A stretch of DNA of 64,000 nt from Candidatus Omnitrophota bacterium. Lineage in GTDB: Bacteria > Omnitrophota > Gorgyraeia > 2-01-FULL-45-10. Position numbers and translations under genes: made by a program. The notes under the pieces were generated by a model. It worked only from the letters and a program-made list of their open reading frames with translations, was not told the DNA's origin and made no database searches. Location of the stretch: positions 77,091-141,090 of the forward strand of contig JAPLME010000008.1 of NCBI GenBank assembly GCA_026387175.1, given 5' to 3'. Shown here piece by piece: positions 10,279 to 53,733 of this stretch (positions within the stretch are counted from its first letter, which is position 1; each line of letters starts with the position of its first letter).

Positions 10279-11151
10279 ATGCAGAGGTATATAGATAAGT
10301 TCATGAATTATCTGAAGGTCGAAAAGAATGCCTCGGAGCATACTATTATAAACTATACTATCGACCTGAATGTCTTTAAGGCCTTTCTCGGCGATAAAGA
10401 GATCGAAACGGTGGACCATCTGGCCTTGCGCCGTTATCTGGCGGAACTTCGAGCGAAGAATTATTCAAAGAGGACCGTCGCCAGAAAACTCGCTTCCTTG
10501 AGAAGCTTTTTCAGGTTTCTCTTCCGTGAAGGGCATATAAAAAAGAACCCTATAACCGCCGTCCTGACACCAAAGCTTGACAAGAAATTGCCGGTATTTC
10601 TGGACACAGCAAAGATAGATAGGCTTCTTTCTGCGCCTACGGATAAGGATCTTGCGGGCTTAAGAGACCGGGCGTTATTGGAGACATTATATTCGACCGG
10701 AATCCGCGTCAGCGAGCTGGTGGGTCTTGATCTCAGCGATATAGATTTTATAAGCGGAGTCATAAAGGTGCTCGGTAAGGGCCATAAGGAGCGGGTTGTA
10801 CCCATAGGGGAACCGGCATTGGCTGCTATAAGAAAGTATGTCGATAAGAAGGCCGATGAGAAGGTTAATGACAAGGATGCCGTATTCTTGAATAAATCCG
10901 GCGGCCGCCTCACGGATCGAAGCGTCAGGCGGGTATTGGATAAACATATTAAGACGTGCAGCATATCCGAAAAAATATCGCCGCATTCGCTCAGGCATTC
11001 CTTTGCGACCCATCTCTTAGATCGCGGCGCGGACCTGAGGAGCGTTCAGGAGCTTCTGGGCCACATGAACCTGTCGACGACGCAGATATATACGCATGTT
11101 ACGATGGAGCGGCTTAAGTCGGTATACGATAAAGCCCACCCACGGGCGTAG
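10279..11151 (+). CDS. tyrosine site-specific recombinase, XerC/XerD family
   Basis: 290 aa. It carries the R...HxxR...Y catalytic pattern (HSLRHSFATHLL...LGHMNLSTTQIYTHV). XerC versus XerD cannot be decided by eye. Confidence 0.75.
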   Translation: MQRYIDKFMNYLKVEKNASEHTIINYTIDLNVFKAFLGDKEIETVDHLALRRYLAELRAKNYSKRTVARKLASLRSFFRFLFREGHIKKNPITAVLTPKLDKKLPVFLDTAKIDRLLSAPTDKDLAGLRDRALLETLYSTGIRVSELVGLDLSDIDFISGVIKVLGKGHKERVVPIGEPALAAIRKYVDKKADEKVNDKDAVFLNKSGGRLTDRSVRRVLDKHIKTCSISEKISPHSLRHSFATHLLDRGADLRSVQELLGHMNLSTTQIYTHVTMERLKSVYDKAHPRA

Positions 11152-11435
11152 ATTTTTCGGCTCAAGCGTAAGTCTAGAGCCTTCGGGCACTTGCTTTCGC
11201 TCTTTACGAGCATCCCTCGCGTGGTGGTACTTCGCAGGGACGCAAAATTTCCCCTGCGAGGAAATTTTGCTCGGAAAGATCGCTCGCTCTTTTTGGCATA
11301 CAAGAATACCCGGGCCAAAAATCCGTGCCCGCTCGCGACTTTCGACGCCCTGCTTAGCACCACCCCGCGAGGGATAGCTGAGTAGCAGCGAAAGTATCGC
11401 CCGAAGGCTCTACTATTCGAGTGAGCCGAAAAATC
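11151..11435. repeat. 285-bp imperfect palindromic (long-hairpin) intergenic element, possible MITE or structured RNA
   Basis: The ends are perfect reverse complements. gatttttcggctca (11151-11164) pairs with tgagccgaaaaatc (11422-11435), and inside that tagagccttcgggc pairs with gcccgaaggctcta. Further inner arm pairs include atccctcgcg.ggtggt. The centre contains local hairpins (gcaaaatttcc...ggaaattttgc; tttttggc...gccaaaaa). Confidence 0.6.
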
Positions 11436-11528
11436 TCCTGGCGGAGTAAGTAGAGAGTGAGATTGGAGCAGTGACCTGTAATCAGGTCTAGGCAGGCGGG
11501 GGCCAGTAAAAACCTAACGAAAGAGGGC

Positions 11529-21744: not shown

Positions 21745-22798
21745 GAAGATATTGATAGTCAGGCTTGACAGGATAGGCGATGTGGCGCTTTCAACGCCTG
21801 TTATAAAGGCGTTGAGAGATGCCCATCCCGATAGCTATATAGCGATGATGGTCCTGCCTTACGCGCGCGAGATAGTCGAAGGGAATCCATATCTCGATGA
21901 GGTCATAATTTATGATAAGGGTCGCGGTCATAAAGGAGTCGTAGGTAATTATAAGTTTGTGCGGGAATTAAAGAAAAAGAAGTTTGACATCGCCATAATA
22001 TTGCATCCGACTGCCAGGACTCATATGGCGCTCATGTTCGCGGGCATACCGGAGCGCATAGGCTACGATAAGAAGGCCGGATTCCTTCTCACAAAGAGGA
22101 TCCCGCACACAAAACAGTTTGGCATGAAACATGAGATAGATTATTCACTGGATATTCTCAAATATATAGGCATAAAGCCTTCGGCGAGGGAGCTCTGCAT
22201 GCCGATCAATAGCGTCTCTGAGCGAAAGATAGAGGCCATGCTTAAGGAGAATAATATTAAAGATTCCGATATTATTGTAGCGGTCAACCCGGGCGCAAGC
22301 TGCGCGTCGAAATGCTGGAACGTAGAAAAATTCGCTAAAGTCTCCAACCGCCTGACGGAGAAATACGGCGCCAGGATAGTCGTAATATCGGGATCGGCCG
22401 ATAAGGTTCTCGGCGACAAGCTTGCCTCGCTTATCACTACTGGCTGTGTCAACCTATCCGGTAAGACCGGCATTGGTGACGTTGCGAGCCTCTTGAGGCG
22501 TGCCAGGCTCTTTATTTCTAATGACTCAGGGCCAGTTCATATAGGATGCGCCGTAGGCGTAAGCGTTATCGCGATATTTGGCAGGGGTGACCGCGGACTT
22601 TCTCCCAAGAGGTGGGGGCCCATCGGTAAGCATGATGCGGTGCTGCATAAGAGCGCAGGGTGTGAAATCTGTTATGCGCATAATTGCAAGTCAGCCTTCA
22701 AATGCCTTGATTCGATAACGCCGGAAGAAGTGCTTGCCGCCGCGGAAAAGATTTTAGGAAGCGGAAAAAAGCAAGTAGAAACAAAAGAGACCTTCTAA
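21728..22798 (+). CDS. LPS heptosyltransferase (GT9)
   Basis: 356 aa. GT9 motifs ILIVRLDRIGDVALSTP and NDSGPVHIGCAVGVSVIAIFG. Confidence 0.75.
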   Translation: MRDMSKKILIVRLDRIGDVALSTPVIKALRDAHPDSYIAMMVLPYAREIVEGNPYLDEVIIYDKGRGHKGVVGNYKFVRELKKKKFDIAIILHPTARTHMALMFAGIPERIGYDKKAGFLLTKRIPHTKQFGMKHEIDYSLDILKYIGIKPSARELCMPINSVSERKIEAMLKENNIKDSDIIVAVNPGASCASKCWNVEKFAKVSNRLTEKYGARIVVISGSADKVLGDKLASLITTGCVNLSGKTGIGDVASLLRRARLFISNDSGPVHIGCAVGVSVIAIFGRGDRGLSPKRWGPIGKHDAVLHKSAGCEICYAHNCKSAFKCLDSITPEEVLAAAEKILGSGKKQVETKETF

Positions 22799-22815
22799 CT
22801 TCGAAGGTCTTTTTG
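22788..22815 (+). terminator. rho-independent terminator closing the LPS gene block
   Basis: An 8-bp stem (agaccttc/gaaggtct) with a 7-nt loop containing the stop codon, followed by tttt (22811-22814). Confidence 0.55.
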
Positions 22816-23020
22816 TAGGTGATAGGCCTGGATTGCTTTCGCTATCGTGCCATCTCCTCCAGTATTTCTACTTAAAGTATGCCACAAGATTTTGGTTTCT
22901 ACAAGACCTCGGGCGAAATATTTATGGTTAAGAAAATAGTTAGAATTTCATTATGGCTTTTATTTCTTTACATAGTAGTGTCCGCATTTATTGAACTGAC
23001 GAAGGGGATAAGGTGGTGAT

Positions 23021-24102: not shown

Positions 24103-24226
24103 GGCGAAAATATCTCTCCAGCTATCGTCGGATGGCGGAACTTTCGGGCGATGCTGGAGCGAGCGGCAAGCGGAAGCATTGCCCGAAAGTAAACGCCGGA
24201 CTGTAATATATAGATGATATTTTCGC
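24103..24226 (+). repeat. copy A of a small terminal-inverted-repeat element with a conserved internal hairpin
   Basis: The ends ggcgaaaatatc (24103) and gatattttcgc (24216-24226) are reverse complements. An internal 15-bp stem, actttcgggcgatgc (24140-24155) with gcattgcccgaaagt (24176-24190), closes a 20-nt loop. A near-identical copy lies at 53524-53733. Confidence 0.6.
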
Positions 24227-24241
24227 TGTAGTGGATAGCAT

Positions 24242-24271
24242 TTGACGTCGTTATCGCGCATATGTTAGAAT
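24242..24271 (+). promoter_or_regulatory. candidate sigma70-type promoter for the 24300 gene
   Basis: ttgacg (24242-24247), an 18-nt spacer, then tagaat (24266-24271). An SD (gaggaag) precedes the ATG at 24300. Confidence 0.3.
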
Positions 24272-24299: not shown

Positions 24300-25244
24300 A
24301 TGAAGAAGCCAAAGCACAAGATAGACCTTAGCAAGGTCAGGACCATCCCGCTTAATGCCCGCAAGTGTAAAGTCTCTATAAGCGATTTTGCGAAAAGAGC
24401 CGAAAAGGGCGAAAGTTTTAAAGATTTTTACGATTCGCTACCCAATATACTTGCGGTCCAGGACCTTAAGGCGCTGGTCGATGCCGTAATCTCCGCATAC
24501 AAGAAAAAGAGGATGGTGATCATCATGATGGGCGCGCATGTGATAAAGTGCGGCCTTTCACCGCTCATCATCGACCTGATGAAGCGAGGGGTCGTAAAAG
24601 CCGTCGCGCTTAACGGCGCAGGGGTGATCCACGACACGGAGATAGCTCTGATAGGACGCACGAGCGAAGATGTCGGAGAAGGCATTCTCGACGGCTCTTT
24701 CGGCATGGCGAAGGAGACGGCAAATTTCATTAACGGGGCTATAAATTCAGGGTTCACCGGAGGAACGGGCATAGGCGAGTCCGTAGGCAAAAAGATAGTG
24801 GAGTCAAAGCTTCCGCACAGGAACCTGAGCATCCTGGCCAACGCGTATGAGTTGGACGTTTCCGTCACCGCCCATGTCGCCATAGGCACCGACATCATAC
24901 ATCAGCATTATTCCGCGAACGGCGCTGCGATCGGAGAGGGCTCGCTTCTCGATTTCAAAAATTTCATATACAGTGTCTCCAAACTCGAAGGAGGCGTACT
25001 TATAAATCTGGGATCGGCCGTGATACTGCCCGAGGTCTTCCTGAAGGCCATCACCGTAGCGCGTAATCTCGGCAATAAGGTCGATACTTTAACTACCGCT
25101 AATTTCGATATGATAAGACAGTACAGGCCGTACCAGAATATATTATCCAGGCCGACTTCGAAGGGCGGCAGGGGTTATAATATAATAGGCCATCACGAGA
25201 TAATGGTGCCGTTAATGTACCGCTCTATAATAGAAAAGATATGA
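24300..25244 (+). CDS. hypothetical protein, possibly a Rossmann-like or DHS-like fold enzyme
   Basis: 314 aa with good coding statistics and an SD. Glycine-rich segments are present (MMGAHVIKCG; NGAGVIHDTE; VAIGTDIIHQH). I cannot place it in a named family. Confidence 0.5.
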   Translation: MKKPKHKIDLSKVRTIPLNARKCKVSISDFAKRAEKGESFKDFYDSLPNILAVQDLKALVDAVISAYKKKRMVIIMMGAHVIKCGLSPLIIDLMKRGVVKAVALNGAGVIHDTEIALIGRTSEDVGEGILDGSFGMAKETANFINGAINSGFTGGTGIGESVGKKIVESKLPHRNLSILANAYELDVSVTAHVAIGTDIIHQHYSANGAAIGEGSLLDFKNFIYSVSKLEGGVLINLGSAVILPEVFLKAITVARNLGNKVDTLTTANFDMIRQYRPYQNILSRPTSKGGRGYNIIGHHEIMVPLMYRSIIEKI

Positions 25245-39076: not shown

Positions 39077-39103
39077 ATTGTACTATATACTATATAGTAC
39101 AAT
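39077..39103. promoter_or_regulatory. perfect 27-bp palindrome, a likely operator, 18 nt upstream of the giant ORF
   Basis: ATTGTACTATATA-C-TATATAGTACAAT is an exact reverse complement about its central C (39090). It sits in an AT-rich leader just before the RBS and ATG at 39121. Confidence 0.5.
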
Positions 39104-39120
39104 AAAAAGGTAAATCATGT

Positions 39121-48388: not shown

Positions 48389-48574
48389 ATGAAAGTAAAG
48401 ATAGACGCTGATACCTGCATAGGTTGCGGCCTTTGCGTCAGCACATGCCCGGAAGTTTATAAGATGGAAGATGATAAGGCGGTAGTATACGTATCTGTTA
48501 TCCCGAAGGATGTCGAAGATACCTGTAAAAAAGCTGCCGATGATTGCCCCGTAACGGCAATATTGGTGTCATAA
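48389..48574 (+). CDS. fdx: small 4Fe-4S ferredoxin
   Basis: 61 aa with CIGCGLCVSTCP and a distal Cys. It has an SD (aggaagg). Confidence 0.7.
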   Translation: MKVKIDADTCIGCGLCVSTCPEVYKMEDDKAVVYVSVIPKDVEDTCKKAADDCPVTAILVS

Positions 48575-48589
48575 AGGATATAGAGGCGC

Positions 48590-53523: not shown

Positions 53524-53733
53524 GGCGAAAATATCTCTTCTGTATCGTCAGATGGCGGAACTTTCGGGCGATGCTGGAGCGACTTTCTGAAATTCCGATA
53601 CCTATAGGCGGTTTAGGCTTCACCATCGGAATTTTAGCAACAGCGAGCGAGGAAGCCTATTCCGAGCGAGCGGCAAGCGGAAGCATTGACCGAAAGTAAA
53701 CGCCGGATTGAGGTGCTTATAAGATATTTTCGC
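53524..53733 (+). repeat. copy B of the terminal-inverted-repeat element, carrying a nested 87-bp insertion
   Basis: It shares ggcgaaaatatctct...gatggcggaactttcgggcgatgctggagcga and gcggcaagcggaagcattg.ccgaaagtaaacgccgga...gatattttcgc with copy A. An 87-bp insert (53583-53669) is flanked by a gagcga duplication and carries its own inverted repeat (aaattccgat...atcggaatttt). Confidence 0.6.

Follow-up and report, generated by a model that had tools for sequence, protein, structure and literature searches.

In this work, we have analysed a small repeated element found in the intergenic spacers of a 64,000-nucleotide stretch of DNA from a Candidatus Omnitrophota bacterium (contig JAPLME010000008.1, positions 77,091 to 141,090 of the forward strand), which is called here the window. 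Three copies, A, B and C, are present in it, and all the large open reading frames (ORFs) around them are on the + strand. Copy A starts 8 nt past the stop codon of ychF and ends 72 nt ahead of the ATG of a gene coding for a 314-aa protein, copy B starts 23 nt past the stop of a ferritin-like gene and ends 18–19 nt ahead of the ATG of sor, 8 nt ahead of its ribosome-binding site GAAGGAGG, and copy C lies in the 378-nt spacer between an xerC-like gene and kdtA. The KdtA encoded here is 100% identical to MCX5678396.1, a protein of a Candidatus Omnitrophota metagenome-assembled genome. Our results show that these copies belong to a previously undescribed family of hairpin-forming, non-coding intergenic repeats of Candidatus Omnitrophota; a literature search turned up no account of either repeat elements or non-coding RNAs from Omnitrophota.

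The original prediction held that two loci of the window carry one small element with terminal inverted repeats, and this is what we find. A and B are identical at 110 of 124 aligned bases (89%), and the near-identical blocks that had been described in them measure 40 nt (98% identity) and 70 nt (86%). Both copies start with GGCGAAAATATC and end with GATATTTTCGC, words that are complementary at 11 of 12 positions, and an 11-nt terminal inverted repeat closes each copy, which agrees with the earlier claim that they end in the reverse complement of their own start. Allowing up to one mismatch, the GGCGAAAATATC word occurs six times in the window against 0.8 occurrences expected; four of these are the ends of A and B, and the other two lie inside coding sequence. 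The similarity between the two copies ends exactly at the inverted repeats, and the flanking sequences (AACGGA and TGTAGT around A, GGGTA and ATTAAC around B) are unrelated. The only ORFs spanning A and B are short reverse-strand artefacts, the units in the window measure 124–291 nt, and there is no transposase gene inside them.

Both copies are predicted to fold into very stable structures, A at -60.9 kcal/mol (z = -5.35 versus shuffled sequence) and B at -85.8 kcal/mol (z = -4.72). Each of them is one long imperfect hairpin made up of a closing helix of 11+3 bp (P1), an internal loop, a second helix centred on GGCGG/CGCC (P2) and a 16-bp stem (P3). In the full-length members of the family this long stem is capped by a three-way junction with two further hairpins, P4 and P5. 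In B, P4 has 12–13 bp and a 25-nt loop, while the stem of P5 is interrupted by tandem G-A/A-G mismatches and its loop is GCCUAUU; A is devoid of the P4–P5 domain. Thus, of the hairpin and loop once thought to be the same in both copies, the P3 stem is indeed common, but the 19-nt loop belongs to A alone, since in B P3 closes the three-way junction. Because P4 and P5 are present in 10 of the 11 aligned members, and A corresponds to B minus an 87-nt segment lying between two GAGCGA direct repeats (at 53577 and 53664), the long form is taken as ancestral and A as an internal-deletion derivative; the exact edges of the deletion are ambiguous within the repeat, which flanks both sides of the segment. 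Two covariance models, R1 and R2, match both copies in the window (R1, 75 bits for A and 192 bits for B; R2, 72.5 bits, E = 4.5e-18, for A and 181 bits, E = 4.5e-48, for B).

Copy C is a third member of the family, which the original prediction did not contain. With filters off, its core is matched on the - strand by R1 (18 bits, E = 0.0018) and by R2 (25.5 bits, E = 4.1e-05), and the copy folds at -154 kcal/mol. The TAG stop of the xerC-like gene (11149–11151) lies inside its closing helix, and both the C type of closing helix and the purine-rich linker that follows it are also present at copies of related loci (L002, L003, L004, L006 and L028). Beyond A, B and C, no position of the window reaches E = 0.5 in model searches with filters off. 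This includes the region at 22830–22900, upstream of ychF, in which a degenerate remnant of the element had been suspected: neither model matches it, and what lies there (22798–23020) is a conserved leader of some 150 nt preceded by a canonical terminator, GACCTTC..GAAGGTCTTTTT. Terminator and leader are found nearly base for base at the same place in the related loci L009, L015, L016 and L020, and in L010 this region is replaced by a full copy of the element.

The family extends well outside the window. The related DNA searched amounts to about 300 kb, and the genome and metagenome scans were made by exact words, which favours one subfamily. A 20-mer scan of species-representative genomes gave long-form copies in two other Omnitrophota metagenome-assembled genomes (MAGs; loci L002, L003 and L004), together with two chance matches in Planctomycetota coding sequence; a scan of JGI metagenomes with a word from the 3' half gave two contigs with copies (L006 and L007); and model searches of the loci around YchF and KdtA homologues of related Omnitrophota gave copies in L010, L027 and L028, with two in L028. 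In total there are 11 clear copies (75–202 bits), besides C and a partial copy in L020/L021, in at least six Omnitrophota genomes or contigs, these counts being of sequences and not of independent events, as five copies of the alpha group described below are close relatives. The copies in other genomes are at unrelated loci, with E-values down to 1e-55; a single contig carries three copies in 32.7 kb, and in L004 the 645-nt spacer between ribH and nusB holds two. The search for further copies that had been proposed to tell a family from a local duplication has therefore come out on the side of a family. No further copy was found by model search in the 10 kb past the window end (L022). At gathering level, Rfam matched nothing besides tRNA in the window and eight related loci, and permissive Rfam searches (E up to 10) around A, B and the L004 and L006 spacers returned noise only, so that the Rfam comparison also suggested at the outset assigns the copies of the window to no family in it. 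The window contains no tRNA or tmRNA. In IMG/VR viral contigs, three pattern scans gave chance word matches only and neither model matched, and blastn of B against plasmids and phages gave no match.

The structured fold is supported by strong covariation among the aligned copies. In A4, a model-based alignment of 11 copies that, being fitted to the model, favours the structure, 96.1% of the cells pair and 29 of the 49 pairs show double compensatory changes, whereas controls in which the partners were slid by 1–3 columns show 34–42% pairing and at most eight doubly changed pairs; none of 500 shuffles reached the observed values. The diverged copies of A4 were found by sequence-plus-structure search and were not hand-picked. 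Doubly changed pairs amount to 14 of 16 in P3, 6 of 8 in P5 and 6 of 15 in P4, and inspection by eye of L004-2, L010 and L028-b reveals P3 and P5 stems that are wholly different in sequence yet still paired. The covariation test that had been proposed thus argues for a conserved structure. The closing helix varies in sequence as well, and its pairing is always kept.

Two groups can be distinguished among the copies. The alpha group (A, B, L002, L003, L004-1, L006-1 and L028-a) is 79–98% identical, and the beta group (L004-2, L027 and L028-b), about 60% identical to alpha, has an extended P4 tip; L010 is intermediate between them. Alpha and beta copies occur within one genome in L004 and in the L010/L028 contig. 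Of the internal unpaired columns, 24 of 60 are invariant, and the invariant bases include most of CUGGAGCGACUUUC, GAUAC, CCAUC, CAACAGC and GCGACAAGCGGAAG; overall, unpaired and paired columns are about equally conserved. A helix first predicted within the P4 loop is 75% paired and shows no covariation, and it was replaced by a candidate loop–loop pairing of AUAGGC at the P4 tip with GCCUAU in the P5 loop. Its columns pair at 88%, with double changes at two of the five pairs (those in L028-a and L010), which is weakly suggestive of a contact between the two loops.

Table 1. Features of the element copies and their surroundings in the window
Feature	Position	Strand	Length	Remarks
Copy A, short form	24103-24226	+	124 nt	sequence, fold, model match
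Copy A, P1	24103-24117 / 24212-24226			paired strands
Copy A, P2	24127-24138 / 24194-24201			paired strands
Copy A, P3	24140-24155 / 24175-24190		16 bp	paired strands
Copy A, apical loop	24156-24174		19 nt	
Promoter of 314-aa gene	24242-24271	+		sigma-70-like, TTGACG-18-TAGAAT with TG; outside the element
Copy B, long form	53524-53733	+	210 nt	sequence, fold, model match
Copy B, P1	53524-53538 / 53721-53733			paired strands
Copy B, P2	53547-53558 / 53701-53711			paired strands
Copy B, P3	53560-53575 / 53682-53697			paired strands
Copy B, junction strands	53576-53587, 53637-53642, 53672-53681			
Copy B, P4 hairpin	53588-53636			apical loop 53600-53624
Copy B, P5 hairpin	53643-53671			
Internal segment of B	53583-53669	+	87 nt	P4, P5 and junction strands; absent from A
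Copy C, diverged, larger	11148-11438	core on -	291 nt	
Copy C, closing helix	11150-11164 / 11422-11436			AGATTTTTCGGCTCA / TGAGCCGAAAAATCT (+ strand reading)
Purine-rich linker after C	11437-11466			CCTGGCGGAGTAAGTAGAGAGTGAGATTGG

The surroundings of A and B differ. A ends 15 nt short of a strong sigma-70-like promoter of the 314-aa gene, which is also found in L009 and in L019, a relative in which the site is empty. Because A lies upstream of this promoter, it belongs to the ychF 3' region and not to the 5' untranslated region (UTR) of the 314-aa gene. At B, and in the spacer between the ferritin-like gene and sor as a whole, no promoter-like or terminator-like site is predicted. The original prediction placed both copies 5' of a + strand gene, at 74 nt (A) and 20 nt (B): strand and spacer position are correct, the distances to the ATG are those measured above, and A, which precedes the promoter of the next gene, is not in its 5' UTR. 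The 314-aa protein (24300–25244) has no Pfam match; its gene is kept beside ychF and the rfaE-like/kdsB genes in L010, L015 and L019, and only its 5' end is on the contig in L009.

All the copies are intergenic and lie between genes of the same direction that are functionally unrelated, the flanking genes being ychF/314-aa, ferritin-like/sor, xerC/kdtA, ribH/nusB, asd/truA, dxs, tRNA-Phe/NUDIX and ilvC/leuA-like, with L028-a upstream of dprA. The core runs with the direction of the genes in five of 12 copies (A, B, L004-2, L010 and L027) and against it in the other seven (C, L002, L003, L004-1, L006-1, L028-a and L028-b). The closing helix follows the orientation of the core. Copies with the core in gene sense have GGCGAAAATATC...GATATTTTCGCC as their closing pair, in which the A-run leads and the U-run trails, the exception being L010, which is without the standard closing helix. 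Read in gene sense, all seven antisense copies start with (A)GATTTTTCGGC and six of them end with GCCGAAAAATC(T), with the U-run first; L028-b ends in a second U-run word instead. The six U-run-first copies are then followed by a purine-rich linker such as CCTG..GGGGTGAGTAGAGAGTGAGATTGG. Whichever the orientation of the core, a GAT(A)TTTTCG(G/C)C word is present on the transcribed strand, either just past the upstream stop or just ahead of the downstream ribosome-binding site or promoter. A simple DNA inversion was considered as the source of the two orientation classes and rejected: inverting a unit bounded by inverted repeats leaves its closing helix unchanged, so that inversion cannot convert one type of bracket into the other, and here the closing helix is flipped.

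The same brackets also enclose unrelated contents, at L007 533–791, at L027 143–437 and, in both L006 and L009, around a conserved module of about 330 nt. The GATATTTTCGCC word also occurs alone, without a hairpin partner, 5–12 nt ahead of ribosome-binding sites (L025:2617, L016:17 and 38, in tandem, and L027:426); these solo words may be what is left of deleted elements, or they may form a leader motif of their own. The purine-rich word GGGGTGAGTAGAGAGTGAGATTGG and its variants (11437–11466 and the L004, L006, L009 and L027 spacers) are always on the gene-sense strand, directly after U-run-first hairpins and directly before A-run-first ones, and resemble an extended Shine-Dalgarno sequence. 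As for the 330-nt module (L006:2660–3050 and L009:4720–5170, both on the + strand), it comes after the purine-rich linker, has long-range pairings such as CCGAAGTTATAG...TAACTTCGG and GAAAAAGGG...CCCCTTTTTC, and ends in GATATTTTCGC just ahead of a promoter or ribosome-binding site. Rfam gave no match to the module, whether in L006 up to E = 10 or in L009 at gathering level, and it may be a second structured element of Omnitrophota genomes, outside known families. The stem base that follows copy C matches the base of this module in L006.

Occupancy of the sites varies among relatives. Downstream of ychF the site is empty in L019 (YchF 85% identical), where the 69-nt spacer consists of the stop, 12 nt and the same promoter; in L020 (80%), an incomplete copy in the opposite orientation lies 5 nt past the ychF stop; L009 (92%) has 669 nt of other hairpin modules; and L010 and L015 have yet other sequence, the full copy of L010 being upstream of ychF instead. 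The spacer downstream of ychF appears to be an insertion hotspot. Its other contents are repeat-like and specific to the lineage, and include a hairpin of some 150 nt with GCTAAAATTTGGGT/ACCCAAATTTTAGC as closing pair (L009:4560–4710), runs of GGTCACCAG/CTGGTGACC words (L015:11075–11296) and a small hairpin similar to the copy A tip, ATGCTGAGCGAAGCGAAGCAT (L010:11075–11301). At the xerC–kdtA site, L027 and L028 have short, different hairpins, and L025 has a 37-nt spacer upstream of kdtA behind a different gene (Fic domain). The site upstream of dprA holds an alpha copy in L028, a differently filled bracket in L027 and a 13-nt spacer in the window.

The copies of one genome are each other's closest relatives. 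The cores of A and B are 95% identical, as compared with at most 91–92% to any foreign copy, and the two agree in lineage-specific states, having their closing helix and a G-U pair of P3 in common; likewise L002 and L003, from one MAG, are 98% identical, against 79–93% between genomes. Short-read contigs from this organism or its relatives start or end inside copies (L013, L021, L027, L030 and L031), as assemblers break at repeats. L030 and L031 start inside B, and all that follows in them matches the window at 100% identity; since A and B share only about 25 identical bases at this break point, further copies elsewhere in the genome are likely. The MAG of L002 and L003 also carries a different hairpin repeat, GAAGCCTGCCTGCCTGCTGCC...GGCAGGCAGGCAGGCAATCTTC, preceded by GTCATTGCGA, at L003:2204–2270 and L002:4892–4958; the weak model matches at these two places belong to it and were not counted as family members.

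We propose, with a confidence only somewhat above even, that the family is a new non-autonomous, structured intergenic repeat similar to the enterobacterial repetitive intergenic consensus (ERIC) and to miniature inverted-repeat transposable elements (MITEs), which is co-transcribed with its neighbours. An affiliation of the ERIC/BOX/MITE kind is indicated by the inverted-repeat bounds, the clustering within genomes, the non-orthologous positions and the empty sites, and also by the internal-deletion variants, the strictly intergenic location, the presence of both orientations and the assembly breaks. An element of 124–300 nt, mobile or recently mobile, would multiply within a genome, landing only in spacers between same-direction genes, and would be gained, lost and internally deleted over short evolutionary distances, A being one such derivative. 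Conservation of the fold whichever way the core is turned suggests recognition of a folded single strand, and copying may need this form, a few fixed bases of the junction and a factor encoded elsewhere. As the element lies inside transcription units, it would be co-transcribed and would form a very stable RNA hairpin, which may act as a barrier or processing site between cistrons, after ychF in the case of A and in the spacer between the ferritin-like gene and sor in the case of B. By analogy with repetitive extragenic palindromic (REP), ERIC and Correia sequences (PMC3184786), such a hairpin could stop 3' exonucleases, introduce sites for RNase cleavage or cause partial termination of transcription, and thereby uncouple the neighbouring cistrons.

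Several observations weigh against this proposal. There is no target-site duplication at any of the 12 copies, one class having the conserved linker as its right flank, and neither the called genes of the related loci nor those window ORFs that were checked showed a transposase or other candidate mobilising gene. Across subfamilies the core is conserved (60% identity, with the fold preserved), whereas each orientation class has terminal repeats of its own, which is unusual for transposase-driven MITEs. The strict tie of closing-helix type to core orientation is not explained by a simple two-way insertion. Finally, the possible loop–loop pairing with its two double changes would suggest that the tertiary fold is compact, as is more typically the case in functional RNAs. 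The original prediction offered a MITE-like element or a cis-acting structured RNA shared by two transcripts. The copies, their ends and the variable sites speak for an element family, and the fold is there, but a role in cis specific to given genes is not borne out: we rejected a riboswitch or a gene-specific cis-regulatory leader, as the neighbours are unrelated, the copies lie in both orientations (seven of 12 antisense), and A is upstream of the promoter of the next gene.

A functional structured RNA class present in several copies, be it self-processing, a protein-binding scaffold or a cis-acting processing or stability module, with the junction core as the active part and the outer helix simply closing it, is the main alternative, which we nevertheless consider unlikely. 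It would account for the compensatory changes in every well-supported helix, for the invariance of so many internal unpaired columns across subfamilies only 60% identical, for the candidate pairing between the P4 and P5 loops, and for a closing helix that always pairs while its sequence varies. In addition, the four gene-sense copies folded on both strands (A, B, L004-2 and a differently filled bracket, L007-2) all fold better in sense, and they carry G-U but no A-C pairs. The conserved strand is, however, antisense to all neighbouring genes in seven of 12 copies, no promoter-like site is common to the upstream regions of these seven, and a strand-specific function would not conserve the complement equally well. 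The antisense copies have two G-U against two A-C pairs, few events, and similar fold energies on both strands; the numbers are too small for the comparison of G-U with A-C pairs to decide the matter. Nor do the equal conservation of unpaired and paired columns, the lack of an Rfam match even at E = 10 and the non-conserved occupancy of orthologous sites favour a functional RNA. In a bolder form, which we regard as speculative and would back with slightly less conviction still, the core would be a new functional RNA class, or a folded single strand, that drives its own spread or processing, as a self-cleaving or self-ligating RNA or as the scaffold of an Omnitrophota-specific mobilising enzyme; the two orientation-linked closing helices would then be part of the mechanism.

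It is improbable that the copies closed by GGCGAAAATATC...GATATTTTCGCC are elaborate structures resembling Rho-independent terminators, comparable to the pneumococcal SPRITE repeats, that end or attenuate the transcription of the upstream gene. A lies exactly where a terminator is expected, between the ychF stop and the next promoter; in L009 a GGTATTTTCGCC word after a small hairpin stands just ahead of the same promoter; the bracket reads A-tract, hairpin, U-tract on both strands; and SPRITE is a published repeat with a terminator-like motif (PMC3184786). The U-run, however, is of four U and lies inside the closing helix, the adjoining stem is AU-rich, and a consensus scan, which allows loops of 3–8 nt only, finds no terminator at A or B. 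B, L004-2, L006, L007 and L025 end 3–25 nt ahead of a ribosome-binding site, with no promoter between the two in the case of B, and this weakens the terminator explanation, because a terminator that worked efficiently just ahead of a ribosome-binding site would shut off the gene downstream. Copies of the other orientation class begin with the U-tract and finish with the A-tract on either strand, and so cannot terminate, and the conserved core would be left unexplained.

We see equally little likelihood that the family is a site acting at the DNA level, a single-stranded hairpin or cruciform recognised by a recombinase, by an HUH-type enzyme (as in REP/RAYT or at IS200/IS605 ends) or by a nucleoid protein, the RNA fold being a by-product. 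Such a site would explain why conservation is equal in both orientations to transcription, why the antisense-oriented copies are near-perfect hairpins with Watson-Crick pairing, and why inner parts are deleted or replaced at the hairpin tips, as in copy A and in the stem base after C that matches the base of the L006 module; the fixed unpaired bases could be protein contacts. Against it, no gene for such an enzyme is seen near any copy, and REP units and the end hairpins of IS200/IS605, as generally known, are far smaller and less branched than the elements. Recognition at the DNA level may rather be the copying mechanism of the ERIC/MITE-like repeat proposed above.

Other kinds of structured element were discarded. 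The attC sites of integrons are imperfect hairpins with end boxes of the GTTRRRY type that form cassette arrays with an adjacent integrase. There is no cassette array here, the copies lie 13 and 29 kb apart among housekeeping genes and end in GGCGAAAATATC/GATATTTTCGC, and the only integrase-family gene near copies is the syntenic xerC-like gene. Retron, bridge and omega RNAs, as they are generally described, fit no better, as the two ends of the element pair with each other and it has no gene for a reverse transcriptase, IS110 or TnpB next to it. The idea that there is no family, and that the similarity is due to chance or to a single local duplication within this genome, would agree with the presence of only three copies in 64 kb and none in the 10 kb beyond, but it can practically be dismissed in view of the clear copies at unrelated loci of other genomes (E down to 1e-55) and of a covariation far above the controls.

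Small repeats have been described that form long stem–loops at the RNA level, lie at the 3' ends of genes, are co-transcribed with them and affect mRNA stability (PMC3184786). ERIC sequences, also called IRU, are similar to the Omnitrophota element in being imperfect palindromes of about 125 nt, located in transcribed intergenic regions in either orientation, with a sequence highly conserved between species and loci that differ, and their stable RNA hairpin can alter the decay of the neighbouring mRNA (PMC3184786). ERIC-type units are reported with terminal inverted repeats, target duplications and flanking TA (PMC3184786), while no duplication is present at the Omnitrophota copies. The latter also differ in their three-way-junction core, in the two closing-helix types tied to orientation and in the host phylum. 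E. coli carries ERIC, REP and bacterial interspersed mosaic elements (BIMEs), and since blastn (word size 11) found no match to B in 5,426 complete genomes of this species, the element is by sequence none of these. Wilson and Sharp in 2006 reportedly described longer and shorter ERIC variants that differ by internal segments, as the long and short copies of the Omnitrophota element do.

Similarly to bacterial MITEs such as Correia (CREE), RUP, Nezha and Chunjie, the element is small and non-coding, has terminal inverted repeats and several copies per genome, forms a long stem–loop, differs in presence or absence among relatives and shows internal deletions, as in the short and long Correia forms (PMC3184786). 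The differences are the lack of a target-site duplication and of a parent insertion sequence (IS) with the same ends among the window ORFs checked and the called genes of related loci, and terminal repeats that vary around a conserved and covarying core. The BIMEs of E. coli are modular mosaics in which hairpin units alternate in orientation, joined by conserved linkers, within or at the end of operons. BOX of Streptococcus pneumoniae is likewise a modular hairpin mosaic (PMC3184786). The order of class-I hairpin, purine-rich linker and class-II hairpin seen in L004, L002/L007 and L027 recalls such REP, BIME and BOX arrangements, but the Omnitrophota units are branched, 4–8 times longer than a REP unit and without sequence similarity to it. 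To our knowledge, no RAYT-like or IS partner of the element is known. SPRITE shares with A and B a fold at gene 3' ends that resembles a terminator (PMC3184786), the bracket of these copies being A-tract, hairpin and U-tract; here, in contrast, the U-run is short and inside a helix, many copies stand directly ahead of a ribosome-binding site, and the tracts are reversed in the other class.

Omnitrophota is an uncultured, widespread phylum with many ultra-small, host-dependent members (PMC10066038). With its covariance model and strong covariation, the family provides a defined and searchable marker, and it explains why short-read assemblies of these genomes break at particular spacers. As natural insertions between housekeeping genes, the copies offer a means to examine how operons tolerate or exploit the long RNA hairpins within them. 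If the core turned out to be active as an RNA, or to serve a new mobilising enzyme as its handle, this would amount to a new mechanism of small-element spread; otherwise the family is an ordinary, though well-structured, addition to the bacterial intergenic repeats.

Two minor observations concern other parts of the window. The apparent spacers at 45900–46120 and 48395–48585 contain short cysteine-rich reading frames, one of them like a small 4Fe-4S ferredoxin (IDADTCIGCGLCVSTCP...), and judging from these sequences they are probably small genes rather than non-coding DNA. At 39085–39110, just upstream of an ORF of 1872 aa, there is a perfect 12-bp AT-rich palindrome, TGTACTATATAC/TATATAGTACA.

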